51,156 bases of DNA from Nanobdellota archaeon. GTDB taxonomy: Archaea; Nanobdellota; Nanobdellia; Pacearchaeales; GW2011-AR1. A program made the translations under genes and the position numbers. Of this stretch, positions 26,397 to 46,416 are shown one piece after another. Location: NCBI GenBank assembly GCA_038045185.1, contig JBBSYO010000017.1, positions 1 through 51,156 on the forward strand, written 5' to 3'. How positions within the stretch are numbered: position 1 is the stretch's first letter; the number at the start of each line of letters is the position of its first letter. Below the pieces are notes generated by a model, which did no database searches, was not told where the DNA came from, and saw only the letters and a program-made list of their open reading frames with translations.

Positions 26397-26489
26397 CAGA
26401 GAATTTGGATAATTGGATTGCTCTTCGTCCCAAATTCTCTGTCTGGATAATTCGAATGAACTGCAACATAATCAACCGAATTCTCCATA
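26397..26489. mobile_element. TA-flanked double-hairpin element (family A)
   Basis: CAGAGAATTT-N25-AAATTCTCTG followed by TGGATAATTCG..CGAATTCTCCA. Homologous to 46325-46416. Confidence 0.88.
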
Positions 26490-26505
26490 TATCGAATAAC
26501 CGATA
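26490..26505. promoter_or_regulatory. putative operator TATCG-N6-CGATA in the padR promoter
   Basis: TATCGAATAACCGATA lies next to the TATA-like TTTAAATA (26508-26515). Same format as 27336-27351. Confidence 0.55.
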
Positions 26506-26531
26506 TGTTTAAATATTTATAAAAAGAAGAG

Positions 26532-27230
26532 TTAAGCTAAACTATTTACAAAATTAATTAAAAGAGGTAGGTTCTTTTTTGTTAAGGACATATCCCATCT
26601 AGCCTTTCTTATCTTTAACAATATACGCACAATCCTCTTTCTTTTTTGGGGGGATTTATCCAATAGCTTATTATATCTAAACCCATGTTCGCCAAAATCT
26701 CTTTCATTTAAATAATGACAAATTTTAAGTAGGTGTTTAATAAAATATTGTGTAACTTTAAAATCTCCTTTTTTAAGAAATGGCAGATGATTCTTCTTAA
26801 CTGCGATAATGCTTAATTGCACCGCTTCATTAAAATCAATTTCTCTGAGCTTAAAATCTCTTCTTGAATATCTTTTGCCAACTATAAACTTCCAATTTTT
26901 AAAGTCTAACAATAGCAATCTTGGATGTATAACTCTTGCAAGCCTGCTTTTTATCTTCTTACCATTTAGTTCGTATAAATAAAGATAGTTTAGCTTAAAA
27001 CCCTTATAGGGACTTTCTTTAAGGCACTCATTGATGGTTTTACAATCCTTTTCTTTTGCTTTATTTTTTACTATCCCTATACTATCAATATCGCTTGACT
27101 TAGAATTAAAATCCTCAGTTAATACAGTTCCCCATAAATAAATTGATAAGAGTCCTTTATTTTTATATTGGGAATAAACTTTTTTCAAAACAGATTCAAT
27201 TATTCTCATTTGTTCTCTTGATATTTTCAT
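26532..27230 (-). CDS. Pol-beta superfamily nucleotidyltransferase-like protein
   Basis: SIYLWGT.....F...SSDIDSIG (hG[GST]..DxD motif). AT-rich. Confidence 0.75.
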   Translation of the reverse strand: MKISREQMRIIESVLKKVYSQYKNKGLLSIYLWGTVLTEDFNSKSSDIDSIGIVKNKAKEKDCKTINECLKESPYKGFKLNYLYLYELNGKKIKSRLARVIHPRLLLLDFKNWKFIVGKRYSRRDFKLREIDFNEAVQLSIIAVKKNHLPFLKKGDFKVTQYFIKHLLKICHYLNERDFGEHGFRYNKLLDKSPQKRKRIVRILLKIRKARWDMSLTKKNLPLLINFVNSLA

Positions 27231-27335
27231 CTTATTAAGCCCGAATGTTTAATACAGTTAAATTCATCTTTTAATTCTTTCTTCCGCGCGCCGTCTGGGT
27301 GGGGATTGGCAAACAACAGATTTAAATATCTCTTG

Positions 27336-27351
27336 TATCGTATATACGATA
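27336..27351. promoter_or_regulatory. perfect 16-bp palindrome, putative operator
   Basis: TATCGTATATACGATA just downstream of TTTAAATA (27321-27328). Confidence 0.55.
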
Positions 27352-27383
27352 TGACATATGCAATGAAAGGGGGTACGACGAAC

Positions 27384-27539
27384 ATGGGATGTTGCACATA
27401 CAATGCGTCATGCAGTCCAAACAGAGGTTTTCTTACAAAGGCTGAAAGAGTTGATATGCTAGAGGGCTACCAAAAAGAACTCGAAGCTGAAGTCAAGGGA
27501 GTGGCTGAACGGATTGCCGAGCTTAAGGACGAGGAATAA
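27384..27539 (+). CDS. small CC-containing coiled-coil protein
   Basis: MGCC..RGFLTKAERVDMLEGYQKELEAEVKGVAERIAEL, with an SD-like AAAGGGGG upstream. Confidence 0.7.
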   Translation: MGCCTYNASCSPNRGFLTKAERVDMLEGYQKELEAEVKGVAERIAELKDEE

Positions 27540-27620
27540 GTACCTTGATTTTCTCTATTTTTCATTTATTCTTTATCTGTTTAGCAGGGTTTAAATAAAC
27601 CTTTTTTGTTGCCTCCTTAC

Positions 27621-27693
27621 GCAGGGGTGGCGAAGTGGTTAACGCGCTCGGCTGCAGCCCGAGTATTCATGGGTTCAATTCCCATCCCCTGCT
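27621..27693 (+). tRNA. tRNA-Cys(GCA)
   Basis: GCAGGGG/CCCCTGC acceptor and anticodon arm CTCGG-CTGCAGC-CCGAG. Confidence 0.93.
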
Positions 27694-27732
27694 TCCCACA
27701 TTCTTTAAATATACAGTTTGTATGGTATGGAG

Positions 27733-29271
27733 ATGGTGAATAAAAACGCAAAAGATATTACGATTGACGAGCTTGCTACATTCTGCAAGCGCAAGGGTTT
27801 TGTTTATCCTTCTGCTGAAATCTATGGCGGGCTTGCTGGGTTCTGGGATTACGGTCATCTTGGAACATCACTAAAGAAAAACTTTGAAAATCTTTGGAGA
27901 CGCTATTTTCTTGGATTGAGTGATAATTTTTATGAAATTGAGGCTGCAGAGGTTATGCCTGAAAAAGTGTTTGTTGCTAGCGGGCATCTGAAAAACTTTA
28001 CTGATATCGCAGCTAGATGCAAAAAAGGTCATATAGGGCGTGCAGACCAGATTGTGGAGAAATCTGTGGGTGAGAGGGCTGAGGGATTGAGCAGTGAGGA
28101 ACTAATGGGTCTTATTCAGAAACATAAAATAGTTTGTTCTACGTGCAAGGGCGTAATTGATTACGTCGGACCCATTAACATGATGTTTCCAATTCAATTG
28201 GGTGCGGGCACTACTACAACTGCTTTTCTCAGACCCGAAACTGCGCAGAGTCCGTATGTGAACTTTAAGACACAGAACGAAGTTACCCGCGGTCAAATGC
28301 CCTTGGGGCTGGCGCTTATTGGGCGAGCTTATAGAAATGAATTATCTCCGCGCAATATGCTTCTTCGGCAGAGAGCATTCACACAAGCAGAATTGCAGAT
28401 ATTCTTTAATCCTTTAGAAATAAACGCACATCCTGAATTCGACAGCATAAAAAATTACAAATTGAGAGTAGTGAGCAGGGAGCATAGAAATAAAGGTGTG
28501 CAGAGCATATCGGCTTCCGAACTAGCAAAGCGAATACCAAAGTTCTATGTCTATCACATGGCAAAGGTCCAGCAATTTTATCTTGACTTCTTGGAATTTC
28601 CAAAGGACAAGTTTAGGTTTTATGAGCTAAATGATAAAGAGAAAGCCTTCTATAATAAATATCACTTTGATATGGAGGCAGACTTGGGGACGTTGGGATG
28701 GGTAGAAATCGGAGGAGTTCATTACAGAACTGACCACGATTTGAAAGGGCATCAAGAGATATCAAAGCAAAATCTCACTGTTTATGACGAGGATACTAAA
28801 CAGAAGTTTCTCCCGCATGTTTTGGAACTTAGTTTTGGCGTTGATAGGAATTTTCAGACTTTGCTAACTTTTGCGTATGAGCATGACGCTAAACGAGATA
28901 ATATTGTGCTGCATTTGAATCCGAAACTTGCACCGTATAAGGCTGCGGTGCTGCCGATTGTTAAGGGTGAGGAATATGAAAAACTCGCAAAAGAAATACT
29001 TGCAGATTTAAGAAAGGAGTTTAATGTTTTATATGACAGGGGCGGAAGCATTGGGCGGCGCTACGCGCGCAATGATGAAGCAGGCACGCCTTACTGCATT
29101 ACGATTGATGAAGATAGTGTAAAGAAGAAGACAGTTACTATCCGTGATAGAGATACGACGAAGCAGATTCGCGTTAAGATTGCGGAGCTGAACAACATCT
29201 TGAGGGAGCTGGTTAGCGGGGATGTTGAGTTTGATAAAGCGGGGAAGATTGTTGAGACGCGAGTGAAGTAG
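27733..29271 (+). CDS. glyS: glycine--tRNA ligase (alpha2, archaeal/eukaryal type)
   Basis: IYGGLAGFWDYG, LRPETAQ, YRNELSPR and GSIGRRYAR motifs. Start is 27727 or 27733. Confidence 0.95.
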   Translation: MVNKNAKDITIDELATFCKRKGFVYPSAEIYGGLAGFWDYGHLGTSLKKNFENLWRRYFLGLSDNFYEIEAAEVMPEKVFVASGHLKNFTDIAARCKKGHIGRADQIVEKSVGERAEGLSSEELMGLIQKHKIVCSTCKGVIDYVGPINMMFPIQLGAGTTTTAFLRPETAQSPYVNFKTQNEVTRGQMPLGLALIGRAYRNELSPRNMLLRQRAFTQAELQIFFNPLEINAHPEFDSIKNYKLRVVSREHRNKGVQSISASELAKRIPKFYVYHMAKVQQFYLDFLEFPKDKFRFYELNDKEKAFYNKYHFDMEADLGTLGWVEIGGVHYRTDHDLKGHQEISKQNLTVYDEDTKQKFLPHVLELSFGVDRNFQTLLTFAYEHDAKRDNIVLHLNPKLAPYKAAVLPIVKGEEYEKLAKEILADLRKEFNVLYDRGGSIGRRYARNDEAGTPYCITIDEDSVKKKTVTIRDRDTTKQIRVKIAELNNILRELVSGDVEFDKAGKIVETRVK

Positions 29272-29326
29272 TCAGTCCTTTATTCTTTAAGAAAGGGTTT
29301 AAAAGTTAATAATAACTGTTTGGAGA

Positions 29327-30073
29327 ATGAATGCTTTTATGTATGCATTTATCAGCGTGCTGCTTGTAAGCCTGGTTTCGCTTATTGGTGTGACGATGCT
29401 ATCGTTGCAGACGGATAAATTGCGGAAAGTTGTGCTGTATTTGGTAAGTTTTGCTGCTGGCGCGCTTCTTGGTGATGTGTTCCTGCATTTATTGCCTGAG
29501 TTGATTGAAGAGGCTGGTTTTAGCTTTGGATTGGCGTTTACAGCACTTGGAGGCATAGGAGTTTCGTTTGTGATTGAGAAGTTCGTGCATTGGAGGCACT
29601 GCCACATACCTCATTCGAAGGAGCATCCGCATCCGTTTGCAGTGATGAATCTTGTGGGCGACGGAGTGCATAATTTTATTGACGGCATTGTTGTTGGGGC
29701 GAGCTACCTTGCAAGCGTGCCTGTTGGTATTGCGACGACTATTGCGGTGTTCTTGCACGAAATACCGCAGGAAATTGGCGACTTTGGCGTGCTATTGCAC
29801 GGAGGGTTTTCCAAAGGTAGGGCATTGTTCCTTAATTTCCTGCTTGCGTTAACTGCTCTTTTGGGAGTTATTGTTGTTTTTGTTTTGGGGGCGTGGATTG
29901 ACGGCATTTTACCATTTGCGATTGCATTTGCAGGAGGAGCTTTCCTGTATATTGCAGGCTCGGATTTGATACCTGAATTGCATAAAGAATCTCGTTTTCT
30001 GCAGTCATTTATGCAGCTGCTTTGTCTGATTGCAGGCGTTGCTGTGATGAGCGCGCTTTTGTTGCTTGGGTAA
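29327..30073 (+). CDS. ZIP family metal transporter
   Basis: HNFIDG and HEIPQEIGDF motifs with a His-rich loop. Confidence 0.93.
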   Translation: MNAFMYAFISVLLVSLVSLIGVTMLSLQTDKLRKVVLYLVSFAAGALLGDVFLHLLPELIEEAGFSFGLAFTALGGIGVSFVIEKFVHWRHCHIPHSKEHPHPFAVMNLVGDGVHNFIDGIVVGASYLASVPVGIATTIAVFLHEIPQEIGDFGVLLHGGFSKGRALFLNFLLALTALLGVIVVFVLGAWIDGILPFAIAFAGGAFLYIAGSDLIPELHKESRFLQSFMQLLCLIAGVAVMSALLLLG

Positions 30074-30105
30074 GAAATAAAAAGGGATATTTCCTTGAAG
30101 AATAT

Positions 30106-30456
30106 ATGAATGCTGGTTGTGTCTTTTGCAAAATTGCGCAGGGAAAGATTAAGACAGACTTTGTTGACAAGAGCAATTCATTCATTGCGATTCGCGACGC
30201 TAATCCCAAGGCGCGAGGGCACACACTAATTATTCCGAAAGAGCATTATGCTACTCTGCTGGATATTCCTAACAAAATTGGCAGTGAAATGCTTGAATTC
30301 ACTAAAAAAATTGCAGGCTCTTTGCTTGACGAGAAATACGGCGATGGATTTAACCTGCTTATGAATAATCTTTCGTGTGCTGGTCAAGTTGTCATGCATG
30401 CGCATTTGCATCTTATTCCGCGCAGGGAAGGAGATGGTCTGCGTTCTATTGTTTAA
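30106..30456 (+). CDS. HIT family hydrolase
   Basis: CVFCKI and HAHLH motifs. Confidence 0.93.
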   Translation: MNAGCVFCKIAQGKIKTDFVDKSNSFIAIRDANPKARGHTLIIPKEHYATLLDIPNKIGSEMLEFTKKIAGSLLDEKYGDGFNLLMNNLSCAGQVVMHAHLHLIPRREGDGLRSIV

Positions 30457-30890
30457 TAAGTTCTGCGTCCATCTTCTCTCATTGCAAAATTTCTGCTAAA
30501 TTGCTCAAGCGCTTCCGCATACTTAATTCTTTCTTCTGGAGTCATCGCCTGCATATTTTTTAGTCTATTAGAAAGCGAAGCTACTTTTTCAGGAAATGCT
30601 TGTCCTTCTAACGGGAGACCTTTGTTGTAAATCTGGCTTGTTACAAACAATAAATGGTCTATGCATCTGGAATGGTGCGGAACATATCTCTCTCCGATTT
30701 TAGTAAACATATTATCCAGATAATCGCATAATTGCCCAATTACTCTTTGTTCTCCATTAAGCTGAACACCCCTGTTTAATTTATACAATGCACAGACTGC
30801 TGCTTTGATACATTCTTCTATATCGCTGCGGGAAGAAATTGCACTTCTGATACTATCGGGCGGTTCTTCTTGTTTTGATTCTGCAGGCAT
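30453..30890 (-). CDS. hypothetical protein
   Basis: Clean ORF with a TATA-like sequence upstream. Confidence 0.65.
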   Translation of the reverse strand: MPAESKQEEPPDSIRSAISSRSDIEECIKAAVCALYKLNRGVQLNGEQRVIGQLCDYLDNMFTKIGERYVPHHSRCIDHLLFVTSQIYNKGLPLEGQAFPEKVASLSNRLKNMQAMTPEERIKYAEALEQFSRNFAMREDGRRTY

Positions 30891-30927
30891 TTATTATTAT
30901 GAACTCTTCTGTTTTTAGATATATTTA

Positions 30928-31000
30928 TGGTTCTGGGGAGAGTCGAACTCCCGATTTCGGCCTTATGAGAGCCGCGCCTTAACCGCTGGGCTACAGAACC
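30928..31000 (-). tRNA. tRNA with CAT anticodon (elongator Met or Ile2)
   Basis: GGTTCTG/CAGAACC acceptor and anticodon arm CGGCT-CTCATAA-GGCCG. Confidence 0.9.
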
Positions 31001-31048
31001 AAGTTTAGGAACTCTGAATGGTTTTTAAGGTTGTTGTTCGGCAACTTA

Positions 31049-31140
31049 TCGATAATTCTGTTGATTAGCGTATGAAAAACAGAATTATCTTATTAGAGAA
31101 TTCGGGCTAAATTATAGATTAATCATCCGAATTATCTATA
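31049..31140. repeat. double-hairpin element, divergent family A
   Basis: GATAATTCTGTT..AACAGAATTATC followed by AGAGAATTCGG..CCGAATTATCT. Confidence 0.7.
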
Positions 31141-31144
31141 GAAT

Positions 31145-31411
31145 TTATTGTTCGTACTGTGGAACCTGTTGAATATCCTGTATCAATCGTTCTTGAGCCT
31201 GTTCTTTGCGCCTGAGTTCGCGGACAGCGTGCTCCCGCTTGAGGCGCACGACACGGGCTATGTAGCCAGCTATTTTGTTGCGCATTTTCTTGCTTGGCAT
31301 GGTGCTGCCTAAGATTTTTTTATTATTATCGAAACTCTCGTTAAATGCGGACTCTGAGTTGACGAGTTGCTTGGATGTTCTCTTGATAAGAGTTGATTTG
31401 ATTCGTCCCAT
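31145..31411 (-). CDS. rps17e: 30S ribosomal protein S17e
   Basis: MGRIK..F..NKK..SKKMRNKIAGYI signature. Confidence 0.95.
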   Translation of the reverse strand: MGRIKSTLIKRTSKQLVNSESAFNESFDNNKKILGSTMPSKKMRNKIAGYIARVVRLKREHAVRELRRKEQAQERLIQDIQQVPQYEQ

Positions 31412-31435
31412 AATCGAGCTTCGGAAAATGGTTAT

Positions 31436-32368
31436 TTAAAGCTTTAGCTTTTCGTACTTAAGCAGGTTTTTCCACTGGTCTAAATATGGTTTGGCGTTCT
31501 TATCCAATTCGCCCTTGACAAGAAGAAGGGAAGGCATTTTTTCTGCCTGTGATTTGTGAATAATTATGACTAAATCGTCTTCTGTGATTTTCTTTTTGTC
31601 TTTGGCAATTAAGAAGAGCTCTTGCTGACCAAAAGGCGTGTCTATCCTGATTTTGGCGTGATATTCTTTTGTTTTTGCGGTAAGCTCCTGAATGACTTCC
31701 ATGTTTTTGTTTTTTAGATATTCTTGCACGTTTTTTACGAATGCGCTTGGTGATATGTCTTTTGTCTTTTTTTCTTTTGCGGGCTTTGACTCTGAGATTG
31801 TTTCTTGGGCTGTTTTTTCAACGGGTAATTGTTCTTTGATTGCGGAAGTTTCCTTTTTTTCTTGCTTATGCACTTCTTTGGCGGCAGGCGCAGGTTTTGT
31901 TGCGGTCGGATTTACTTGTTCTTCAATGAGTGCGCGTGCCTGTGCTTCTGGCGTGGCGAAGAATTTCCAGAAGATTTTTTCTTCGGTGTTTACGCGCACC
32001 GGCATTGGTATGGCAAAATCCCTGATTTTGCGGAGAGCGACGCGAATCGCTGGGTCTTGCGCCTCATCATCTAAGAGCTGGGCGTGCTTGAGTCGCTCGA
32101 AGGCCTCGCGTTCCTTGCCGTTGAGGTATGAGGTGAATGTTTCGAGCCCTGCTTCCTGACCTGGGATAAAGTATAGCGGAGAACTGCCGACTTTCATACA
32201 GCTCATTACGAGCTTGCGTTCGGCGACCATCTCTGAGAGAAGCGCACCTATGAACAGGGGGCTGATGTTTGTCTCTCGAGAGACGCGGGCAGGAAAACTT
32301 GGACCTGATGTGCGAATTGTGTTGAGAATCCGCTCTTTTGTGGCATTGACTTTTTGAACGTCAATCAT
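31436..32368 (-). CDS. hypothetical protein with N-terminal winged-helix-like domain
   Basis: GPSFP..VGSSPLY N-terminus, low-complexity linker and C-terminal domain. Confidence 0.8.
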   Translation of the reverse strand: MIDVQKVNATKERILNTIRTSGPSFPARVSRETNISPLFIGALLSEMVAERKLVMSCMKVGSSPLYFIPGQEAGLETFTSYLNGKEREAFERLKHAQLLDDEAQDPAIRVALRKIRDFAIPMPVRVNTEEKIFWKFFATPEAQARALIEEQVNPTATKPAPAAKEVHKQEKKETSAIKEQLPVEKTAQETISESKPAKEKKTKDISPSAFVKNVQEYLKNKNMEVIQELTAKTKEYHAKIRIDTPFGQQELFLIAKDKKKITEDDLVIIIHKSQAEKMPSLLLVKGELDKNAKPYLDQWKNLLKYEKLKL

Positions 32369-32409
32369 GCCTTTCTAAGAGTCGGGCTTGTTATAAAGAT
32401 TGTTGTGTT

Positions 32410-32922
32410 TCAAGACCTAAACCACTGGCAAACATAATATGTTACGTCTCCTTCGTCATCTACAATTGCCAATAACAGCTTCTTGTTTGTTGAGGTGGCT
32501 ACCCTGTTCTTGGCTGCAAAGTCGTACCAAGTGAGGGTTTCGTGCTCTCTAAGCGGAAAGAGAAGCCAGGACGCATGACCTTGACTTGGTTTGACGCCTT
32601 TTTCATACACACGGAATTCTGAGCCAAATTTGAGCGCTGTTTTGACGATGTAACCCTTTTTTCTTAAATCGGCAAAAACGGCGAGCTTAGTTTCAATGTT
32701 TTTGTCGCGGTGCTTTATTTTCTTGAGTAATGCTTGGATATCAATGGACTTACTCTGCTGAAATAGCGCGAGTTTATTTCCTTGCATAAGAGCAAGTGCC
32801 TCTACTGAAGAATATTCTATGTGCGAGCGTTTCTTCTCGCCCCAGCGTGATTTTTCGTAGAGCGAGAAAGCTTCCTCGCTTGCTGAGGTGATTGTGTCGT
32901 CGGATAGTTGCGCTTGAATCAT
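32410..32922 (-). CDS. endA: tRNA-intron endonuclease
   Basis: DLRKKGYIVKTALKFGSEFRVY..H...RVA....KK contains the catalytic Y/H/K residues. Confidence 0.92.
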   Translation of the reverse strand: MIQAQLSDDTITSASEEAFSLYEKSRWGEKKRSHIEYSSVEALALMQGNKLALFQQSKSIDIQALLKKIKHRDKNIETKLAVFADLRKKGYIVKTALKFGSEFRVYEKGVKPSQGHASWLLFPLREHETLTWYDFAAKNRVATSTNKKLLLAIVDDEGDVTYYVCQWFRS

Positions 32923-33314
32923 ATTTCTGGCATTATTTTTAATTCAGGAATGCGTCCAAAATGTCTTTTATTTTGTGTCGCAAGCATTTCTTTATTTGTG
33001 ATAGCTATTGAGGCTATCATCACATCAAGCACATCTGTAGTTTCCCCCTGTGATTGTAAATCTTCAAATATTTCGGCTGCTTTTCTTGAGGCTGTGCTTG
33101 TCAGGCTGCTTATTTCTAATTCCGATAGCAGTTTTTTAACTGAATTATGTGCTTCTTCTGTTTTTTTTCGATAAGCTCCTTTCCATAGCTCGAATTCGTT
33201 AATTGTTGTCGTTTTAAGAGGCTCTTCATCCTCTTTCAGCTTTTCAATAAGGTTCACAGCATTCGGCTCTTTTCTTAGGAAATTTATGATTACATCTGTG
33301 TCAAGGAATACCAT
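32919..33314 (-). CDS. vapC: VapC PIN-domain toxin
   Basis: FLDTDVII, EL..G, D..IA..A and T.N..HF motifs. Confidence 0.92.
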   Translation of the reverse strand: MVFLDTDVIINFLRKEPNAVNLIEKLKEDEEPLKTTTINEFELWKGAYRKKTEEAHNSVKKLLSELEISSLTSTASRKAAEIFEDLQSQGETTDVLDVMIASIAITNKEMLATQNKRHFGRIPELKIMPEI

Positions 33315-33559
33315 TATCGGATTCTCCTGGAAACCACTTTTCTTTCTGAATAGATTTCTCCAAGCAGTTTTTCAGCTTCTTTGTCAGACATTTTCCAGCT
33401 TCCTGCTAGTTTCATTATATCTCCTCTTTTCTTATTTAGTTTATCATGGAGCGCCTCATCAAAAGAGACTCTCCTTCCAAGCCTTTCTTGAAGTGCTGTT
33501 GCTATATCAAGAAGGTGCTTATAGTTTTCTTCGCTTATCTTGATTGTTTTGTATATCAT
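33314..33559 (-). CDS. vapB: VapB-type antitoxin
   Basis: KTIKISEE.Y..L..SFDE..LAGSW. Sits directly upstream of vapC. Confidence 0.8.
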   Translation of the reverse strand: MIYKTIKISEENYKHLLDIATALQERLGRRVSFDEALHDKLNKKRGDIMKLAGSWKMSDKEAEKLLGEIYSERKVVSRRIR

Positions 33560-34169: not shown

Positions 34170-34174
34170 CTTCT

Positions 34175-34821: not shown

Positions 34822-34912
34822 ATGTTTAACTTGTTTAACAAGTTTATAAATTTTACTATTTCATTTGCAGCGCCTGCGGAAGTTTTAAATCAGGTTCTTG
34901 CAAGATAAAGAC

Positions 34913-37837
34913 ATGGCTAAGAAAAAATCCTCGAAAACTCTGAATTTTAAAGCCATGGAGCGAAAATGGCAGAGAGCTTGGGATGAGGCTGAAGCGTATA
35001 AGAGTTTCGATAGCTCTGAGAAAAAGAAATGCTATGTGTGCGAGATGTTTCCTTATCCGAGCGCGAGTTTTTTGCATGTTGGGCATATGCGCAATTTCAC
35101 GATTGGCGATTTGATTGCGCGATATAAACGGATGAAGGGTTTTAATGTGATGTATCCGATGGGGTTCGATGCCTTCGGTCTGCCTGCGGAGAATGCCGCA
35201 ATTAAGCAGGGCATTCGTCCGAAGAAGTATACTGAAAATGCAATTAAGACGATAAAGAAGTATATGCGTGAACTGGCTTTGAGTTATGACTGGAGTCGGG
35301 AGCTTGCGACGTGTTCGCCGGAATATTACAGGTGGAATCAATGGTTATTTTTGCGCATGCTTGAGAAGGGAATTGCTTATCGCAAGAAGGCGCCTGTTAA
35401 CTGGTGCCCTTCGTGCAAGACAGTACTGGCTAACGAAGAAGTTGTTGCTGGAAAGTGCTGGCGATGCGACAGCGATGTGACGATTGAGCTTCTGGAGCAA
35501 TGGTTCTTGAAAATTACCAATTATGCGGATGAATTGCTGGAAGGACTTGAGGGATTGAACTGGCCCGAACGAGTTAAAGAACTGCAACGAAACTGGATTG
35601 GACGACGCGAGGGGACGAAGGTTGTATTCCCTATTAAGGGCAGCGAGAAGGCTCTTGAAGTTTTCACCACGCGTGCAGATACACTTTATGGAGTGACTTT
35701 TGTGGCATGTGCGGTACAGCATGAGATTGTTGAAGGTCTTGTTAGGGGAACGAAATATGAAAAGGCTTACAAACAGTTTGTTAAAGATATGTCGGCTTCT
35801 GAAAAATTGGAAGCTGATAAAGAGAAGCACGGATTTTTTATCGGGAAGCATGCAATACATCCGTTGACGAATGAAGAGATTCCGATTTATGCGGGCAATT
35901 TTGTGGTTGCAGGTTATGGCACGGGTGCGGTGATGGGCGTGCCTGCGCATGACCAAAGGGATTTTGAGTTTGCGAAGAAACATAAATTACCGATTAAACA
36001 GGTTGTAGCCCCGCTTTTTGTCACAACTGAGGGAAAGGACGCGATTAGAAAAGATAAGCCCACTATCGCCAGAGATACTGTATTTGCCATTGTTAAACAT
36101 TGGGAGGATGATAAATATTTCTGCCTTGACTGGAAGAAATTTGGATGGAAAAGCTTAGTTATCGGAGGAATTGATGATGGCGAATCTCCTGAAGATGCCG
36201 CAATTAGAGAGGTAAAAGAAGAAACTGGTTACCAAGATATTAAGTCTGTTGCCTCCATAGGTTTTGAGAACCACGGCAACTATTATGCAGAACATAAGGG
36301 AGTTAATAGATATGCAAGGTTCAAGACTTTCTTAGTGACTTTAAAATCTGGAAAGCGTATTGAACCAGATAAAGAGCATGTGCAAAATCATTATGGTTTA
36401 TGGATAGAAGGCAAGGATGTAGAGAGTTTTCTTAATTTGCCAAATAATAAATATGTTTGGGATATTTATGCCAACGGCGAGAGGGCATTTGTTGATGGTG
36501 GCGTTTTAATTAATTCAGACGTTTTCAACGGGCTTGATTCTGCGACTGCGCGGGAACGCATTAGTGAAATGCTTGCAAAAAAGGGCGTCGGTGGGAAGAC
36601 CGTTGAATATAAACTGCGGGACTGGCTGATTTCGCGACAGCGTTATTGGGGAACGCCGATTCCCATTGTATATTGCAAGGATTGCGGGGTTGTGCCAGTT
36701 CCTGAAAAAGATTTGCCTGTTGTGCTGCCGGATAAGGTTAAGTTTACAGGGAAGGGCAACCCCTTGCTGACGAATGAAGGGTTTGTCAATACTAGTTGTC
36801 CGTGCTGTGGAGGAAAGGCACGGCGTGAGACTGATACGATGGCAACGTTCTTTGATTCGAGTTGGTATTATCTGCGTTATTGCTCTCCTAACAGCCACGA
36901 TATTTTTGACAGAAAAGCAGTTGAGTATTGGATGCCGGTTGATTATTACATTGGGGGGATTGAACATGCGGTGCTGCATTTGCTGTATGCGCGTTTTTTC
37001 ACGAAGTTTTTGCGTGACATTGGATGGGTGACATTTGATGAGCCGTTTAAACGCCTTTTTAGCCAAGGGATGGTTCTGGCAAAAAGCGGCGAGAGAATGA
37101 GCAAGAGCAAGGGAAATGCTGTTACGACGAAGGAAGCGTGCAGTCGTTATGGCGTGGATGCGACACGATTCTTCATGCTGTTTGTTGCAAGTCCTGATAA
37201 AGATATGGAATGGGACGAACACGGAATTGAAGGCGTGCATCGGTTTGTGACGCGTTTTAAGGAATTATTTAATCGTGTAGGGGGGGCGGCGAATGCGCTG
37301 ATGGAACACAAACTTCACTCTACGTTAAGAACTGTTGAGCAGAGTTATGAACAGTTTGAGTTTAATAAAGGGCTTGTGGCGTTTATGGAATTTGTGGGAT
37401 ATTTGGCTGAGCAAAAGCAGGTGCCGAGGTTTGTGCTTGAGAATTGCTTGTTGATTATCGCGCCGGTGATGCCGCATTTGGCAGAGGAATTGTGGCATAG
37501 GCTTGGGAGGGCGAGCTTGATTGTGCAGGAGCGTTGGCCGCATGTGGATGAAAGCAAGATTGATGATGCGCTTGATGAGTCTGAACGTGCGCGCGAGAAG
37601 ACGTTTAATGATATTCAGACGGTTCTACGTCTTGTGAGAGAAAAGACTGGCAAAGAACCGAAGAAATTGTATATTTACACGATTCCGCCCGAGGTTGGAC
37701 AGTATTCTGCAGAAGATTTATCGAAGCGTTTAAGTATTGAAGTTAAGGTATTTGCTGTGAATGATTCGCATAAATACGACCCGGAGGGCAAGGCAGGCAA
37801 GGCGCGACTTGGGAAGCCTGCGTTGTATGTTGCATGA
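34913..37837 (+). CDS. leuS: leucine--tRNA ligase, bacterial-type core with inserted Nudix domain
   Basis: [44 protein letters not shown] and RMSKS. Internal Nudix box [22 protein letters not shown]. Confidence 0.96.
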
Positions 37838-38313: not shown

Positions 38314-38336
38314 TTGTCATTGTTCCGTTGGTCAGT

Positions 38337-38559
38337 ATGTCACGAACGTTAAAACCTTGTCCTTTAGGACAAGGCGTTCGTGAGCACAAGAGAATTGATT
38401 AAACGTTTCAATTCTCTGTGCAGCAAATCGTGTTCGATTTGCTTGCATCCAAAAGTCCACACAAACCTCGGCTCATCAAGAATCTCAATTCTTGACTGCC
38501 ATCAAGAACCATAGGTTCTTGAGGTTTAAGCCGAGGTGAACTCAAGGACTTTTTGATAT
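38337..38559. mobile_element. composite nested-hairpin array (family B plus the module shared with 1612-1684)
   Basis: At least eight stems, including TCACGAACG/CGTTCGTGA, CCTTGTCC/GGACAAGG, AGCAAATCG/CGATTTGCT, CAAAAGTCC/GGACTTTTTG, CCTCGGC/GCCGAGG and TCAAGAA/TTCTTGA twice. Confidence 0.88.
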
Positions 38560-38670
38560 AAATTATGCGTTTGCTATTTTTAAGTGAATCGCTATATAAG
38601 TATTGAGATAGGTGAATGATTGTGTTTGAGATTCGTATGAGTATTTAATGAAAAATATCTCCTGTATAAT

Positions 38671-38835: not shown

Positions 38836-38915
38836 ACGAATTATTGCGTTTCTCTCTTTTCTTTTTTTATTTTGGTTAGAGGTAACTTTATTAATGCCTT
38901 ATTTTTTGGTCATGC

Positions 38916-39692: not shown

Positions 39693-39762
39693 CGCAGGAC
39701 TGAAATTTTCTACTTTTCTTTTCAGTTCCGCGAATATAGCAACAGACCTCTTTGGTAGAATA

Positions 39763-41919
39763 TTAAAGTCTGTTGCTATAGGATAGGGCTTCTACAACTG
39801 CTTTAATTCTTCTCACGCCTGCAGCGACTGATTCTTCCTTGATGATTCTGAATGTGCCGATTTCTTTGGTGTTTTTTACATGCGGACCAGTGCAGATTTC
39901 CTTGCTGAACCACCCTTTTTTTTCTGCAGGGTCTTTTACTGTGTAAGTAGAGACTTTGTCAGGATATTTGTGGCCGAATTCTGCCTGTGCTCCCGCGGAT
40001 ATTGCGTTTTTGAATGCGACTTCTTCGCGGACGACTTCGAGGCGCGCATTTATTTTTCTGTTGACCAGCGATTCTATTTGCGCTATTTCTTTATCTGTTA
40101 ATTTTCTGGAAAAATTAAAGTCGAATCTCAATCTTTCTGGAGTGATATTAGAACCTTTTTGCTTCACTTCACTTCCTAAAACTCTTCTCAATGCTTCGTT
40201 TAAAAGATGAGTTGCGGTGTGGAGCCTTGTTGTTTTCTCCGAGTTGTCTGCGAGGCCTGAGCTGAATGAGCCTGCCGAGGTTGTTTTTGAAAGCTCCTGA
40301 TGTTTTTTGTATGCTTCTTCAAAACCGATGACGTCTACTTTTATTTTTTTCGCTTGGGCAAGCTCAACGGTCATCTCGAGAGGAAAACCGTGGCTTTGGA
40401 ATAGGAGAAATGCTTCTGTGCCTGAGATTTGCTTGTTTGAACTTACGCGTTCGAATTCCTTCAAGCCTGTAGAAAGTGTTTTCTCGAACTTGTTTTCTTC
40501 TGCGGAGAGAATGTTTTCTATGAACTTTCTTTTTTCTTTCAGTTCTGAATAATCCGCATACGTGTCGATGACTGTTTCGGCTAGTGTTTTTGTTAAAGGC
40601 TTGTCTACATTAATGTTTAATTTTCTGCTATAAACTATGGCGCGGCGTATGAGCCTGCGAAGCACATATCCGCGTTCGACATTGCTCGGCACTACGCCAT
40701 CTGCAATCATCATTATGGCTGCGCGGAGATGGTCTGCCACGATGCGCATTTCTTTTTCATGGTTCTGATATTCCTTGTTTGACATTTGTTCGATTACTTC
40801 AATAAGTGGTGCGAATGAGGATGTTTCGTAGTTGTCTTTCAGGTTGTTGATGGCGGCAAGCGTGCGCTCAACGCCCATGCCTGTGTCAACATTGCGCTGT
40901 TTTGAGGGAATAAACTTGTATAAATTATTCTCTATCCACTTTTTGATTTGCTTATTATCTTCGTATAATTCTGAAGCAATTCCCAATTTTCCTGCTGATT
41001 CTATGTTCTCTTTTTTATGATCAAAATAAATTACTTCCCGAGGCTGAAGGTTATATTTCTTCAGAAGCTGCTTGAAATAATCTGGATTTGCTTTATCTGG
41101 AATTTTTAACAAACTGAATATCTTAAAATTATATCTTCCAAGTTTTGATTTTATTTCATTTGGATTTGCATTAGTCACAACAATTATTTCCCTCTCTGTG
41201 GATTCAAGTGCTTTAGCCAACCCCTCATTTAATTTTCCTTCTTTGTCAATTAATGTGTTGATAGCGTCCACTAATACTGCTTTAATTTGCACTTTTTCAT
41301 ATTCCATGAAAACATTGTTCCAGATTTCCACCCAACGGCTGTCTTTTGGGTCGAACTTTTTTGGAGGGGTGTCTGATGAGCTCCAATAAAACATCTCTGT
41401 GTCTGGACCGCACGGGCCTGTCCGACCTGCAGGACCCCACCAATTATTATTTTTTGGCAGGAAGGCGATACGTTCTTTTGGAATGCCGAGTGCTAACCAT
41501 GCTTTTTCTGATTCTGTGTCTTTAGGCGCGTCATTATCGCCTGCGAAACAACTGACAGCGAGCTTTTCTATTGGCAGTTTGAGTATTTTTGTAAGGAACT
41601 CGAGGGAATACGAGATTGCTTCTTTTTTCCAGTAATCTCCAAGGGACCAGTTGCCCAGCATCTCGAAGAAAGTATGATGCGCGGCATCGCCCACTTCTTC
41701 TATGTCGCCTGTGCGGACGCATTTTTGCACATTTGCGAGGCGCTTTCCTGAAGGGTGTTTTTCGCCGAGGAGAAAGGGGACAAGGGGATGCATGCCTGCT
41801 GTGGTAAATAATACTGTTGGGTCATTTGCAGGAATGAGCGAAGCCGAAGGAATTATTTTGTGCTGCTTTGAGCTGAAGAATGCAAGATATTTTTCTATCA
41901 ACTGCTGCCTGGTTATCAT
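39763..41919 (-). CDS. alaS: alanine--tRNA ligase (short form, no C-Ala) with inserted HAD-like domain
   Basis: FTTAGM, HHTFFEMLGNWS, GPCGP, EIWNNVFM and DTGMGVER motifs, plus editing motif HTATH..CTGPH. Insert LVDAINTL..VTN..K..YFDH. Confidence 0.95.
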   Translation of the reverse strand: MITRQQLIEKYLAFFSSKQHKIIPSASLIPANDPTVLFTTAGMHPLVPFLLGEKHPSGKRLANVQKCVRTGDIEEVGDAAHHTFFEMLGNWSLGDYWKKEAISYSLEFLTKILKLPIEKLAVSCFAGDNDAPKDTESEKAWLALGIPKERIAFLPKNNNWWGPAGRTGPCGPDTEMFYWSSSDTPPKKFDPKDSRWVEIWNNVFMEYEKVQIKAVLVDAINTLIDKEGKLNEGLAKALESTEREIIVVTNANPNEIKSKLGRYNFKIFSLLKIPDKANPDYFKQLLKKYNLQPREVIYFDHKKENIESAGKLGIASELYEDNKQIKKWIENNLYKFIPSKQRNVDTGMGVERTLAAINNLKDNYETSSFAPLIEVIEQMSNKEYQNHEKEMRIVADHLRAAIMMIADGVVPSNVERGYVLRRLIRRAIVYSRKLNINVDKPLTKTLAETVIDTYADYSELKEKRKFIENILSAEENKFEKTLSTGLKEFERVSSNKQISGTEAFLLFQSHGFPLEMTVELAQAKKIKVDVIGFEEAYKKHQELSKTTSAGSFSSGLADNSEKTTRLHTATHLLNEALRRVLGSEVKQKGSNITPERLRFDFNFSRKLTDKEIAQIESLVNRKINARLEVVREEVAFKNAISAGAQAEFGHKYPDKVSTYTVKDPAEKKGWFSKEICTGPHVKNTKEIGTFRIIKEESVAAGVRRIKAVVEALSYSNRL

Positions 41920-41981
41920 ACCAGAAAATCACGGCAGAGCTATTTAATAATTGCTATTGCAGTGTATTGTTAACTTATAGT

Positions 41982-42068
41982 GATGGAAATTAATTTTCGG
42001 AGTTATTCGTTTTCCATCTCTATCTATGAAAGGAACGGAAGTTTTCCGATTTTTAATTTCCTTTCATA
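41982..42068. repeat. two tandem hairpins
   Basis: GATGGAAA/TTTCCATC and TATGAAAGGAA/TTCCTTTCATA. Confidence 0.6.
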
Positions 42069-42117
42069 TAACTGGTGCTCTGGAAAAGATTAAAAGGTTT
42101 ATTTTTCATTGATTTTC

Positions 42118-43539
42118 ATGGATTATAAGGAATTATTGGAGGAAGTAAAAAACCCTGAAAAAGAAGTTTGCGAGCTTAAAACTAGTTTTAACGAATGGGA
42201 AGCTATTGCTAAGACAATAGCTGCCTTCTCAACTAAGAGAGGCGGCAAAATATTTATCGGTATAGATAAAAGAGGGGTTCCTTGTGGTACGGTTTGCTCA
42301 AATGAAATTAGTGGAAAAATACAAACCTTAGCGAACAACGAGATAAAACCCGCTGCAAACGTTTCATTAGAGAAGGTAAATCACGATTCTGAAAAAGGTC
42401 AAGTAATTGCATGTATTAATGTTAAAAAAGGAAATGGAGTTTATTCATATAAAGGCGTACACTATGAACGAAGAGGGGATACAAATCACCCACTAACTGC
42501 TGATGAAATATTTGAACTACAGAAAGCTATCAAGAAACTTTATTTTGATGAAATGCCATCATTTTCTGAAGAGAGACCTGCACTTATTTCTGACATAGAT
42601 GAGAATAAGACAGTTGCCTACGTTTCTGAAGTTAAAGGTATCTCCCAGGTTGATTTAAAAAGATTTTTAGCAAACCATGGGTTCTTAGTGAATGGTGGTC
42701 AGCAGGTAAAAAATGCGGCTGTAATGATTTTCGGAAAGAGTCCTCAGAAGTTTATTCCACAATTAAGGCTCAGCTTGGCAATTTTTAGTGATAAGATTGT
42801 TACAAGGGACTTTATAAAAAAAGAATTTGTCGGAGACATTAATGAGATTTATCAGAGTGCATTTATAGAAATAGCTAGAAGCATGAGAACCTATTCTTTT
42901 ATAGAAGGTGCAAAAAGACTCGATGTTAAAGAATATCCGATAGAAGTTATAAGGGAATGCCTAATAAATGCATTAGTACATAGAGATTATTTTGAAAAGA
43001 ATACAGAGACATTTGTCAAGATATTTTCTGACCGAATAGAAATTGTAAATCCTGCAACATTTCCATTTGAGAATACTACCTTCGACGAGATTAAAAAAAC
43101 AAAACTTTCGAAGAGAAGAAATCCACTAGTAGCAGAATATTTTGAGTCCCTTGGTCTTATGGAAAAAGAAGGGCGTGGGCTTTCTAGAATTGAAGATGGT
43201 CTGAGGGAACATGGGCTTCCGATTCCTAAGTTTGAAGTAAGTCAGAATATATTCATGGTTACTTTATATAATGCCGAAGATAAACAAAAGATAAAAAATT
43301 CCCCTCATAAAAAAGTTATTGATTACGGTATCTTAAATGCGCGACAGAGAGTCCTTGTAAATCGTTTATATAAAAATCCTAAGGACTCGGTTGGGCGTGC
43401 TGACTATATTCGTTTATTAACAGAGGCAAAAATACCTATTACAAATCCAACCGCTACACGAGACTTAGATGAGCTAACCAAAAGCAATGTACTTACAAGA
43501 ATTGGAGAGAAGAGAGGTACTAAGTATCGCTTAACCTAA
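42118..43539 (+). CDS. Schlafen/AlbA_2 + HATPase_c_4 + wHTH protein (RecG-C-like regulator or defence protein)
   Basis: ELK..AF..GG.IFIGI (AlbA_2), RE.LINALVHRDY..DRIEI.NP..RNP..E..GRG, and TATRDL..L. AT-rich. Confidence 0.88.
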   Translation: MDYKELLEEVKNPEKEVCELKTSFNEWEAIAKTIAAFSTKRGGKIFIGIDKRGVPCGTVCSNEISGKIQTLANNEIKPAANVSLEKVNHDSEKGQVIACINVKKGNGVYSYKGVHYERRGDTNHPLTADEIFELQKAIKKLYFDEMPSFSEERPALISDIDENKTVAYVSEVKGISQVDLKRFLANHGFLVNGGQQVKNAAVMIFGKSPQKFIPQLRLSLAIFSDKIVTRDFIKKEFVGDINEIYQSAFIEIARSMRTYSFIEGAKRLDVKEYPIEVIRECLINALVHRDYFEKNTETFVKIFSDRIEIVNPATFPFENTTFDEIKKTKLSKRRNPLVAEYFESLGLMEKEGRGLSRIEDGLREHGLPIPKFEVSQNIFMVTLYNAEDKQKIKNSPHKKVIDYGILNARQRVLVNRLYKNPKDSVGRADYIRLLTEAKIPITNPTATRDLDELTKSNVLTRIGEKRGTKYRLT

Positions 43540-43572
43540 ATGATGCTTAAATGATGCTTAAATGATGCTTAA
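43537..43572 (+). repeat. 11-bp tandem repeat x3
   Basis: (TAAATGATGCT)3TAA starting at the AlbA gene stop codon. Confidence 0.95.
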
Positions 43573-43606
43573 CTTTTATTCATATTCAATTTCACCAAAC
43601 CGAACC

Positions 43607-43719
43607 AAATGCAATAACTGTCATTACGAGTGGCTACCTCGTTCTGCAAAAGAAAACCCCTTATCTGTCCGAAGTGCAAGTTAGCACGATGGGATAAAGA
43701 GCCTAAAAAGAAGCACTAA
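43607..43719 (+). pseudogene. frameshifted Zn-ribbon microprotein remnant
   Basis: KCNNCHYEWLPRS, then in the -1 frame KRKPLICPKCKLARWDKEPKKKH*. Confidence 0.55.
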
Positions 43720-43760
43720 ATTTTTTTGATGAGTTTAACGCCCGCTAACTTAACAATGCA

Positions 43761-44084
43761 CTATTGCAGGCGTTCGAGCTTGCGTTTTATCTCGTTGATT
43801 TCCGACTCAAGGTCTGAACGTTTCTTGCCTATAACCCCTGTTTTTGCTTTTTGGAGTTCAGAGGGCTGGTGTCGCATGCGCGGCAGAGCACGGTCAATTA
43901 TTTTAAGCTCTTCATGGAGTTCAGAAACCTTTCTTCTGAGCGCGCCCTTTAGCATGATTTCTCTTCTTCTGAGCTGCTTGAATGCCTGATAACGTTTTGC
44001 AATAGTTAGAATTTCTATCTGACTTTGCAGAAGCGTTTTCTGCGCGTATTTTTGCTCTTCGGGATTGATTTTTATATATTCCAT
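43761..44084 (-). CDS. hypothetical coiled-coil protein
   Basis: Clean ORF ending LESEINEIKRKLERLQ, in an operon with 44090-44656. Confidence 0.8.
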   Translation of the reverse strand: MEYIKINPEEQKYAQKTLLQSQIEILTIAKRYQAFKQLRRREIMLKGALRRKVSELHEELKIIDRALPRMRHQPSELQKAKTGVIGKKRSDLESEINEIKRKLERLQ

Positions 44085-44089
44085 CTAAA

Positions 44090-44656
44090 TTAGTAGTCTG
44101 TTTTGTCGAAGAGTTCGGTCATGACTGTTTGGATGCGTGCCTTGATTGTTTCCATTTCAGTTTCCCAGGACGATAACTCCTGATCCTCCCGGGCTTTCAC
44201 ATCGCGTATTTGCTTGAGAAGCTCTTCTATTTCGCTTAGTTTTCCTTTTACGCTGTCAAGCGCGCTCAAGGCGATTTGATATTTATCAACGCGGACGAAG
44301 ATGGGCTTGCTGTCGCGCGATTCTGAACGTGCTGGCGGGGATGTGGACAATCTGGCGTCGGGCTTCCACTCCTCTATCTCAACGAGTTTGTAATTATTTT
44401 CTGGACGATCTTTCATTTTGCCTGGGAATTCAGGCAATTCTTCGCTTATCTCTTCCTGCGCCACAGCTTCCTTAATTGCGCTCTGGCTGAAGCCACTACG
44501 CATTGGAGAATCAGGAAATGCAGGCAATTCGTGAATTTCAGATTCTTCATCTAAGTCGTCTTTCGGTGCTGAGACTATTGGATAACGCAGAGGTATTGAA
44601 GCGTTGTATGGAAGGTCAGGCAGACGGTTATCTTTCTTTTTTTTGTCCCAGAACAT
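44090..44656 (-). CDS. hypothetical protein (Pro/acidic N-terminus, coiled-coil C-terminus)
   Basis: PIFVRVDKY..E..EL..WE.E motif in a clean ORF. Confidence 0.8.
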   Translation of the reverse strand: MFWDKKKKDNRLPDLPYNASIPLRYPIVSAPKDDLDEESEIHELPAFPDSPMRSGFSQSAIKEAVAQEEISEELPEFPGKMKDRPENNYKLVEIEEWKPDARLSTSPPARSESRDSKPIFVRVDKYQIALSALDSVKGKLSEIEELLKQIRDVKAREDQELSSWETEMETIKARIQTVMTELFDKTDY

Positions 44657-44756
44657 CTATCTTAAACCAGAAGTTGATTTTTATAGGTTTAGATGCACTT
44701 TATAATGGTAACAGTTCTTTAGAAAGGTTTTTATTGCTCCCTTAGCAAAAATCGTT

Positions 44757-45482
44757 ATGCCCTCTCGTAAACGCGTCTCTTCTCCTGCTGACAAAGAACT
44801 CGTTATTTTGTTAAAAGATGTTGTTGCGTCTATTGCAAGCGTGGCTGCTGTTGGTCTGGTAGATTTGCTCTACGGAAAGAAAAATGTGAATGAGTTTCTT
44901 ATTGCTAAAAAATTAAATCTCAATATCAATCAAACCCGCAATATTCTGTATAAATTAGTTGATGAGGGGCTTGTTAGTTTTATTCGCAAGAAAGACAGCA
45001 AGAACGGCGGATGGTATACTTATTACTGGACTCTTGATAGTTCTAAATCTATTGCGAATTTGCGCAATACTCTCTTAAAGGATATGCAGCATCTTGAGCA
45101 GAAGCTTGGAGAGCGCAAACATCAGCGGTTTTATTACTGCCCTAATTGCGACCTTGAGATGGACGAAGAAAACGCATTGCTTAATAATTTTACCTGCACT
45201 GAATGCGGCGAGGTTCTGACGCTGCGTGATAACACGCTCTTGGTACAGCAATTTGAAGGACAGATTGCGAAACGCAAGCATCAGCTTGTGGGTGTTGACA
45301 TGCAGCTTGGTGCACTCAACGCGAAACATAGTGCATTACGACAACGTGCGCTTAAGGCAGATGTTAGGCGCAAGAAAGAACAGCGCGCGCTTAAGCGCAA
45401 GGCGACGGCGGCGGCAAAGAAGGTTTCCCTGAAGAGTTCTCGGCGCCCGAAGAAAGCGAGCCGCAGCCGAACGCGCGCATGA
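44757..45482 (+). CDS. tfe: transcription factor E alpha
   Basis: Winged helix (NEFLIA..RNILYKL..GWYTYYW) plus CPNC..CTECG Zn ribbon. Confidence 0.92.
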   Translation: MPSRKRVSSPADKELVILLKDVVASIASVAAVGLVDLLYGKKNVNEFLIAKKLNLNINQTRNILYKLVDEGLVSFIRKKDSKNGGWYTYYWTLDSSKSIANLRNTLLKDMQHLEQKLGERKHQRFYYCPNCDLEMDEENALLNNFTCTECGEVLTLRDNTLLVQQFEGQIAKRKHQLVGVDMQLGALNAKHSALRQRALKADVRRKKEQRALKRKATAAAKKVSLKSSRRPKKASRSRTRA

Positions 45483-46312
45483 AACGGTCAACGCATGGAC
45501 ATTTTTCTCCTTTAAGATGGAGCCTTACGGGCTGGATTATTGCAGTTACTGTTGCAGCTTCGGTTTTATTTTGGAGCGTTGCTGAATTTCTGCCTGCGCT
45601 CGCTTCATATTTAGCGCTAACGCCTGAGCTTTTTGTTTCGGGATATTTCTGGACCGCAGTTACGAGTATGTTCCTGCACGCAGGTGTTCTACACTTATTT
45701 GTGAATATGTTTTCACTCTTTTTTCTTGGGAAATTGGTTGAGCAAATTGTTGGTAGAAGAAGATATCTTGTTTTTTATCTTGCCGCGGGAATTGTCGGAG
45801 CGCTGTTCTTTGTCGGAGGAGCTTATTTGAGCGGTTCTGTTATTAATGGCGACCGTCTTTTTGGGACTCCGCTTACTCCTGCTGTTGGGGCAAGCGGAGC
45901 CTTATTTGGGCTTCTTGGTTTGCTGGCAGTGCTTATACCGCGCCAGCGCGTCTATTTGATTATTGGACCGCTTGTACTTATTGTGCTGCAAGTTATTCTT
46001 GGAAGGTTTATCCCTGAATCTTTGCAGGGAATATTTGCTTTGTTGGTAAGCTTTTTGTTTATTTTCATGATTATTGGCATGTTTTCTTCTAACTCTGTGA
46101 TGAAAAAAATTGCGCTGCCAATGGATTTGCCGTTATGGTTGGCTCCAGTCGTGGCTATTGTGCCTCTTTCTGTCATTAGTTTTTTTGTTGAACTGCCGAT
46201 AGGTAACACGGCACACTTTGGGGGCTTGATTGCGGGATTGGTTTATGGGACTTTTTTGCGGAGAAGATATGCGCGTAAAGTCGCTCTTCTCAACAGGATG
46301 TTTAAACGATGA
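45479..46312 (+). CDS. rhomboid family intramembrane serine protease
   Basis: HLFVNM, GASG and AHFGG motifs. Confidence 0.93.
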   Translation: MKRSTHGHFSPLRWSLTGWIIAVTVAASVLFWSVAEFLPALASYLALTPELFVSGYFWTAVTSMFLHAGVLHLFVNMFSLFFLGKLVEQIVGRRRYLVFYLAAGIVGALFFVGGAYLSGSVINGDRLFGTPLTPAVGASGALFGLLGLLAVLIPRQRVYLIIGPLVLIVLQVILGRFIPESLQGIFALLVSFLFIFMIIGMFSSNSVMKKIALPMDLPLWLAPVVAIVPLSVISFFVELPIGNTAHFGGLIAGLVYGTFLRRRYARKVALLNRMFKR

Positions 46313-46324
46313 AGCGACGAAATA

Positions 46325-46416
46325 CAGAGAATTTGGGACAAAGAGCAATCCAATTATCAAATTCTCTGTCTGGACAATTCGAATGAACCGCAAAATCATC
46401 AACCGAATTCTCCATA
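46325..46416. mobile_element. TA-flanked double-hairpin element (family A) inserted in the 5' end of the spoIIM-like gene
   Basis: Homologous to 26397-26489 with the first loop inverted. Its removal restores MKRRNKRYRLMHDSW from the ATG at 46309. Confidence 0.88.

Follow-up and report, generated by a model that had tools for sequence, protein, structure and literature searches.

Family A, a two-hairpin MITE of DPANN archaea with insertion at TA and recurrent loop inversions

The 51,156 nucleotides (nt) at positions 1-51,156 of contig JBBSYO010000017.1 of a Nanobdellota archaeon, here called the window, contain copies of a short repeat, Family A, in which two small hairpins stand side by side between TA dinucleotides. 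Family A behaves as a miniature inverted-repeat transposable element (MITE) that lands at TA and duplicates the TA. Taking all observations together, we consider it likely, with a probability of roughly 0.7, that Family A is a non-autonomous, two-arm MITE of DPANN archaea, 88-91 bp in length, which inserts whole at TA, is moved in trans and has loops that flip in place. The assembly that hosts the window (G000) consists of 909 kb in 84 contigs (given as C-numbers), with a G+C content of 41% and a completeness of 82.9%. Comparisons were made to genomes from the same genus, among which G003 is the closest and colinear with the window, and to genome G007.

Structure of Family A and insertion of the pair at TA

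The Family A element is a 91-bp fold-back in which each arm is a small hairpin. A pattern for the single hairpin unit, put forward in a sequence-only reading of the window, identified 49 units in G000, as compared to none in a reversed control and none in five Markov shuffles; in the window, the unit motif has three matches versus 0.01 expected. The genome contains 22 full elements, most of which are 91 bp long (15 elements), followed by 90 bp (5), 89 bp (1) and 88 bp (1). Each arm forms a hairpin of about 45 bp with a perfect stem of 11-14 bp and a loop of about 20 nt, and one arm is an inverted copy of the other, with a mean arm-to-arm identity of 0.67. In a wider set of 40 elements (80 arms), collected with a search pattern that required yrGA(G/T)AATT ends, clustering by orientation grouped unit 1 with the reverse complement of unit 2 with a positive margin throughout (80/80 arms), and all 40 elements carry yrGA(G/T)AATT as terminal inverted repeats at both ends, as the pattern demands. 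Since the arms are inverted copies and each of them is a hairpin, the terminal motif, yrGAGAATT or yrGATAATT, occurs four times per element. The stretches named in the sequence-only reading fold into hairpins with z-scores from -5.0 to -9.1, and none of 200 shuffles folded as well. The stems covary, with all four Watson-Crick pair types represented at the first two inner positions, which are paired in 77/80 and 73/80 arms, respectively.

Four copies of this type are located in the window. We denote the majority arrangement as [A;a], elements with a flipped loop in unit 1 as [B;a], those with a flipped loop in unit 2 as [A;b] and those with both loops flipped as [B;b]. Copy 1 is a 91-bp [A;a] element on the plus strand at 26397-26487, with the unit 1 hairpin at 26396-26442, the unit 2 hairpin at 26444-26487 and TA dinucleotides at 26395-26396 and 26488-26489, while the orthologous site in G003 has one TA. 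Copy 2 is a 90-bp [B;a] element on the plus strand at 46325-46414, flanked by TA at 46323-46324 and 46415-46416. Both copies fold as two hairpins (z about -5.5) and have a perfect stem of 12-13 bp in unit 1, a one-base linker and a stem of 11 bp in unit 2. The two-unit build and TA flanks that the sequence-only reading described for 26397-26489 and 46325-46416 are thus real, the elements proper ending at 26487 and 46414. Copy 3, a 90-bp [A;a] element of a subfamily with GATAATT stems, is placed on the minus strand at 31049-31138, with TA at 31047-31048 and 31139-31140, and reads unit 2 then unit 1 on the plus strand. It had been listed as one of two divergent pairs and is a true member in the opposite direction, whereas the other, 46995-47047, is not a pair but a single hairpin belonging to a sister family's two-hairpin element of 90 bp (46995-47084, plus strand, TA at 46993-46994 and 47085-47086). 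Copy 4, on the plus strand at 50091-50234 with TA at 50089-50090 and 50235-50236, consists of two units and a nested insert. Its unit 1 (50091-50128 plus 50183-50189) is split by 54 nt of inserted sequence, and what had been taken for a monomer at 50191-50235 is its unit 2 (50190-50234). An uninterrupted homologue of this element is present at C68:6706-6801.

All 21 two-unit elements in G000 that were identified in a search not requiring TA have a TA on both sides, compared to a TA frequency of 6.2% across the genome, and 39 of the 40 elements in the wider set have TA/TA flanks. Six empty sites were found, each with a single TA. Two of these are paralogous sites with identical flanks. One corresponds to the element at C41:17861-17951, for which uninterrupted copies of the host repeat are present in C56 and C41. 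The other corresponds to copy 4, which interrupts the loop of another hairpin repeat; the host hairpins at C41:380, C7:47975 (reverse) and C52:7630 are uninterrupted and contain one TA. Three further sites are those in G003 that are orthologous to 26397, 31049 and 46995, and at the second of these the immediate flanks match. The sixth is the site in G007 that lacks a sister-family element, a paralogue of the one at 46995, at C41:839-938. Family A thus has the inverted ends, the target duplication seen by comparing filled and empty sites, and the small, non-coding, multicopy and patchily distributed copies that characterize MITEs. This agrees with the sequence-only reading, which had proposed MITE-like elements landing at TA and had staked the idea beforehand on a TA bias in the flanks and on empty sites in relatives, both of which are found.

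The distribution is patchy. The unit pattern has 19 matches in G000 but none in any of eight genomes from the same genus. A search for the junction between units 1 and 2 in species genomes gave 39 matches, 24 of which are real elements in ten other DPANN metagenome-assembled genomes (MAGs); the remaining 15 form no hairpins and were discarded as chance matches. The MAGs that share Family A are labelled Nanoarchaeota, Woesearchaeota or Pacearchaeota. In metagenomes, 61 of the 90 evaluable loci with junction matches contain real elements, while the one match in viral contigs is a chance match in coding DNA.

The placement of TA indicates what is inserted. Among the 49 units in G000, TA is present only on the outer side of the pair in 44, on both sides in two and on neither side in three. 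The linker and the order of the units are constant across the elements, and all six empty sites lack the whole two-unit element. The outer-only TA, the constant length and linker, and the empty sites that lack whole pairs therefore identify the two-hairpin element, rather than the 45-bp unit, as the unit of insertion. The suggestion that units of about 45 bp move singly and then concatenate finds no support in these data, given the TA on the outer side only (44/49), the fixed length of 88-91 bp and the whole-pair empty sites.

The alternative is that each hairpin of 43-47 bp (motif, loop, motif) is mobile by itself, so that pairs represent adjacent landings and a flip represents an insertion in the opposite direction. 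Every unit does carry both "ends" in inverted order, and two solo units, at C40:3390-3433 and C41:510-552, have TA on both sides, the former at a TA within the recognisable loop of another repeat. The solos could be independently inserted units or products of deletion between directly repeated stems. No empty site was found for the solo in C41, where the region does not align with G007, nor for the solo in C40, which has no syntenic partner in five genus-mates. However, the host sequence that follows the solo in C40 is no longer intact, and deletion between directly repeated stems gives the same picture. Moreover, independent landings sit poorly with a TA that is always on the outer side in 44 of 49 units, a constant linker with a fixed unit order, and six of six empty sites without the whole pair, and the one monomer that had been named is half of a split pair. 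A distance of 20 nt between two ends is also very short for a paired-end transposase complex. We therefore regard independent mobility of the single hairpin as unlikely. Nevertheless, the TA-flanked solos, the covarying stems and a terminal motif that occurs four times per element are compatible with the idea, to our mind a doubtful one, that the hairpin of 43-47 bp is the minimal mobile unit, the 91-bp element its dimer, and the hairpin a structure that is recognised by a TA-duplicating transposase. If so, few known mobile DNAs would be as small, and the mode of transposition would join hairpin recognition with TA duplication.

Loop inversions, gene context and the mobilising enzyme

Returning to the two-arm element as the inserted unit, we compared the orientation of the loops. 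The loop of unit 1 in copy 2 (46336-46357, between the stems 46324-46335 and 46358-46369) is the reverse complement of that in copy 1, save one substitution and a one-base loss, while unit 2 has the same orientation in both, just as the sequence-only reading had noticed. In general, a flipped loop is a near-exact reverse complement of the sibling's loop, and the stems, linker and TA flanks are unchanged. Single units do invert on their own, as had also been proposed, and 9 of the 80 arms are flipped. The 40 elements comprise 31 with the arrangement [A;a], five [A;b], four [B;a] and no [B;b], and three of the five [A;b] elements share wider flanks, so that they represent one event. The metagenomes, in which some loci overlap the genome set, contain 45 [A;a], four [B;a] and two [A;b] elements, with another ten unclear.

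The state of the loop was compared at loci represented in several records. It was concordant in all nine pairs of records with the same flanks (9/9), which represent seven loci, each in two or three records. In addition, Logan assembled contigs from four sequencing runs were compared to the window. The sequence at 46325-46414 is unchanged in record 6 of run X1 and in record 14 of run X11, with 0 differences in each. The contigs show no minor loop orientation, although they may miss such forms. Since the flipped form is present in contigs from two runs of different studies, it is not an assembly error. Four joints that appeared as candidate variants of the loci (46414>46324, 50088>50236, 50122>50185 and 34076>50236) were rejected as they represent other copies of the repeats in the genome. 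The loop flip is thus real, rare and recurrent, and the concordant records at seven loci show that it is stable at the locus, as a mutation and not a switch.

The Family A copies are mostly intergenic and occur in both directions, with many at gene ends and one of 22 in a confirmed gene. Copy 2 is located in the gap that runs from the stop codon of a rhomboid gene (46310-46312) to the probable start of the following gene (46441). The corresponding stretch of G003 measures about 12 nt, and the rhomboid gene there abuts the neighbour from which copy 2 separates it in the window. These positions, along with the strong hairpin folds and the covarying stems, would suit units that are selected host regulatory or RNA modules, such as terminators, processing sites or protein-binding sites, with the flip serving as a programmed switch. 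We find this highly improbable, since Family A is missing from all eight same-genus genomes and from the orthologous sites in G003, the copies are nested in other repeats and placed in frame in genes, they occur in both directions, no Rfam family besides tRNA was found in the window, and the state of the loop is concordant at all seven loci with multiple records.

Two elements extend reading frames. The element at C41:17861-17951 adds 91 + 2 = 93 nt in frame to an open reading frame (ORF) for a 2725-amino-acid (aa) surface protein, with Laminin_G_3 domains on the far side, and the sister-family element that is missing from G007 adds 102 nt in frame to a gene for a Fic-domain protein (C41:579-1547, minus strand). 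The surface-protein ORF (C41:12940-21117) contains a nest of at least three hairpin elements, and its insert encodes the same peptide stretch as the insert in the Fic gene.

In the model that we favour, the whole two-arm element inserts at TA and duplicates it, as shown above, with intergenic DNA, the loops of other hairpin repeats and, once, the inside of a gene in frame as targets. An IS630/Tc1-mariner-type DDE transposase, encoded outside the 83%-complete assembly, would mobilise it in trans. The flips may arise when the two halves of the perfect stem recombine or serve as sites of a template switch, and either process would also keep the stems perfect. Template switching at short inverted repeats is described, in extracts of PMC8604942 and PMC8794818, as inverting spacers and homogenising arms, and it would account for stems that are perfect even though all four pair types occur among their inner bases. 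Since it breaks the long inverted repeat, a flipped arm probably puts an end to further transposition.

TA duplication together with ends that start with CAG or TAG after the TA points to the IS630/Tc1-mariner class, and for Family A it is the TA duplication that suggests the link. No DDE_3 match and no rve match was found in the 82.9%-complete G000. The sequence-only reading had called for a search for IS630-like transposases with matching ends, and this search found none in G000, in 201 genomes of the order or in five MAGs that carry Family A. Likewise, no full-length parent element was found in G000 or in five Family A-rich MAGs, the assemblies of which are incomplete and break at repeats. 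Two candidates in G224 with Family A ends were rejected, as they encode a surface protein and an unknown protein of 509 aa, but no transposase. G000 also contains a fragment of a DDE_Tnp_1 gene in C54, with relatives in 42 of 151 genomes of the taxonomic family, and nine such loci that were inspected neither have clear inverted ends nor resemble Family A.

Several of these observations, along with others, weigh against the model. DDE_3 genes are present in only 4 of 201 genomes of the order and in one of five MAGs that carry Family A, no Family A-like ends were found at any of eight DDE_3 loci inspected in the relatives and in one MAG that carries Family A, and of four pairs of Family A ends that bound long elements in G000, none encloses a transposase. 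Furthermore, the symmetry of the element makes a duplicated TA indistinguishable by sequence from an element that carries one TA and inserts beside another. The two TA-flanked solos are explained equally well by single-unit mobility and by deletion. The inversion in place is deduced from the unchanged frame around the loop, and at no locus were both loop states observed. Finally, a DDE transposase leaves the hairpin shape of each arm unexplained, and the covarying stems could mean that the structure is used, as it is in single-strand transposition.

The last point leads to the possibility that the hairpins are substrates of a single-strand transposase (Y1/HUH, IS200/IS605 or RAYT-like), inserted beside a TA without duplication as in PATE and REP elements. 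G000 encodes a Y1_Tnp protein (C30:4452-4799, 84.7 bits) and a TnpB-like protein, and has many families of hairpin repeats, with 220 perfect-stem hairpins (stem of at least 10 bp, loop of 10-36 nt) compared to 25 in a shuffled genome; the stems of Family A are, as noted, perfect and covarying. However, Family A has a symmetric build with inverted ends and a TA at either side, while the Y1 gene is flanked by small hairpins of a different, G+C-rich kind and by no Family A unit. Loops of about 20 nt are also unlike those in the hairpins of IS200/IS605 or REP elements, and the repeat families in G000 that truly have no TA flanks look different. We consider this explanation quite improbable for Family A. 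The last 64 bases of C30, which follow the Y1 gene (4452-4955 region), are identical to the first 64 bases of C54 (1-641), and C54 continues into the DDE_Tnp_1 reading frame without its N-terminal part. The two contigs may join, which would place one transposase gene inside another.

Neighbouring repeats and genes

The sequence that splits unit 1 of copy 4 is a two-hairpin insert of another family (50129-50182, minus strand, 54 nt), placed within the stem at AGA^ATT. It recurs at the equal stem position at C6:5426-5479 and C34:56-109, with no visible duplication. Its presence in three arms of the Family A type suggests either a site-specific insertion or one old insertion that has spread with the host element.

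Another two-hairpin element, of a third family (41978-42068, plus strand, 91 bp), is flanked by TA at 41976-41977 and 42069-42070. One contig from run X1 omits 41976-42068, corresponding to the 91-bp element and one TA, with a 2-nt overlap and a depth of 22.5 compared to about 100-130 in the surroundings. It may represent an empty allele in the population, although this is a weak indication as the shorter side of the joint is 28 nt. G000 contains no fewer than four further families of two-hairpin elements, about 90 bp in size and with TA flanks and other stems (for example at C5:648-737, C22:18317-18409 and C80:6365-6452), and in some of them the end sequence after the TA is CAGTG. The existence of these families indicates that the twin-hairpin build is a trait of a superfamily and not of Family A alone. 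The window also contains an array of hairpins at 38340-38560 from families without TA flanks, which have GCACA after the stems; the contig depth is raised 5-7-fold here and there are many alternative joints. The array probably belongs to an IS200/IS605-like class.

Close to copy 1 is an 804-bp segment (26517-27320, within 26508-27329) that is missing from G003 and contains an ORF of 232 aa with no Pfam match (26532-27230, minus strand). At its borders the segment has a direct repeat of 9 bp, TTTAAATAT, that resembles an archaeal TATA box, and either a duplicated promoter or an insertion that duplicated 9 bp would account for it. The genes in the window include those for TFB, TFE-alpha, ribosomal protein S3Ae and a tRNA-intron endonuclease, which mark it as archaeal. 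The leucyl-tRNA synthetase (34898-37837) has an internal match to a NUDIX domain at residues 416-494, and the alanyl-tRNA synthetase (39763-41919) has matches to HAD-like hydrolases at about residues 199-315.

Family A among known repeats

Family A is an ordinary kind of mobile DNA, unusual in its twin-hairpin build and in having loop inversions that can be counted. The literature search found no published description of Family A. However, a census includes a Woesearchaea genome with 105 MITEs per Mb (extract of PMC11602168), and with such a MITE-rich genome already published, the kind of element is not new.

In their behaviour, as opposed to their sequence, the Correia elements of Neisseria (CREE/NEMIS) resemble Family A in that they are small, non-coding and multicopy, have inverted ends, insert at TA with duplication and fold into hairpins, and neither has a known transposase. 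However, the Correia elements are bacterial, have inverted ends of 26 bp and a length of 100-155 bp or more, and form one long fold-back, whereas each arm of Family A folds into a separate hairpin. Correia elements have been reported to invert in place (Elbeyioglu et al. 2017, as cited in an excerpt of PMC10969869), but there the inversion concerns the whole element, and in Family A it concerns one loop of 20 nt.

The MITEs of the IS630/Tc1-mariner kind, such as Stowaway in plants and SM1-SM4 in Sulfolobus, share with Family A the TA duplication, the CAG or TAG ends after the TA and a length below 100 bp. SM1 is reportedly 79 bp long and linked to an element of the IS630 family, while no IS630-family element with Family A ends was found. 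We know of no twin-hairpin arms with four copies of the terminal motif in the IS630/Tc1 MITE families. The Sulfolobus elements are listed in the review PMC10969869.

The Rickettsia palindromic elements (RPE) also form hairpins and can sit in frame in protein genes, but they are bacterial and longer, and just one of 22 Family A copies is located in a confirmed gene. To our knowledge, RPE are not associated with a TA duplication. REP, BIME and REPIN-RAYT repeats and PATEs are, like Family A, short hairpin repeats in intergenic mosaics, and a Y1 gene is present in G000. These elements have asymmetric ends and no target duplication, while Family A has inverted ends, TA on both sides and no location beside the Y1 gene. 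Because of the inverted ends and the duplication, Family A is neither REP/RAYT-like nor PATE-like.

The flip itself resembles the hairpin-loop or "minute" inversions exemplified in chloroplasts, yeast and RNA hairpins, in which the spacer is reverse-complemented and the arms stay or become perfect (extracts of PMC8604942 and PMC8794818). The difference is that minute inversions lie in unique DNA, while the substrate in Family A is a multicopy mobile element, so that the same inversion recurs in many copies and can be counted.

Family A thereby offers a clean and countable view of MITE activity in very small DPANN genomes, with precise TA duplications, nesting in other repeats and a landing in frame. 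In these genomes, mutations that invert the spacer between short perfect inverted repeats recur. As a flipped loop has the appearance of a new family, this matters to anyone who aligns or classifies such repeats. Finally, the covariation of hairpins in dispersed repeats need not signify an RNA gene.

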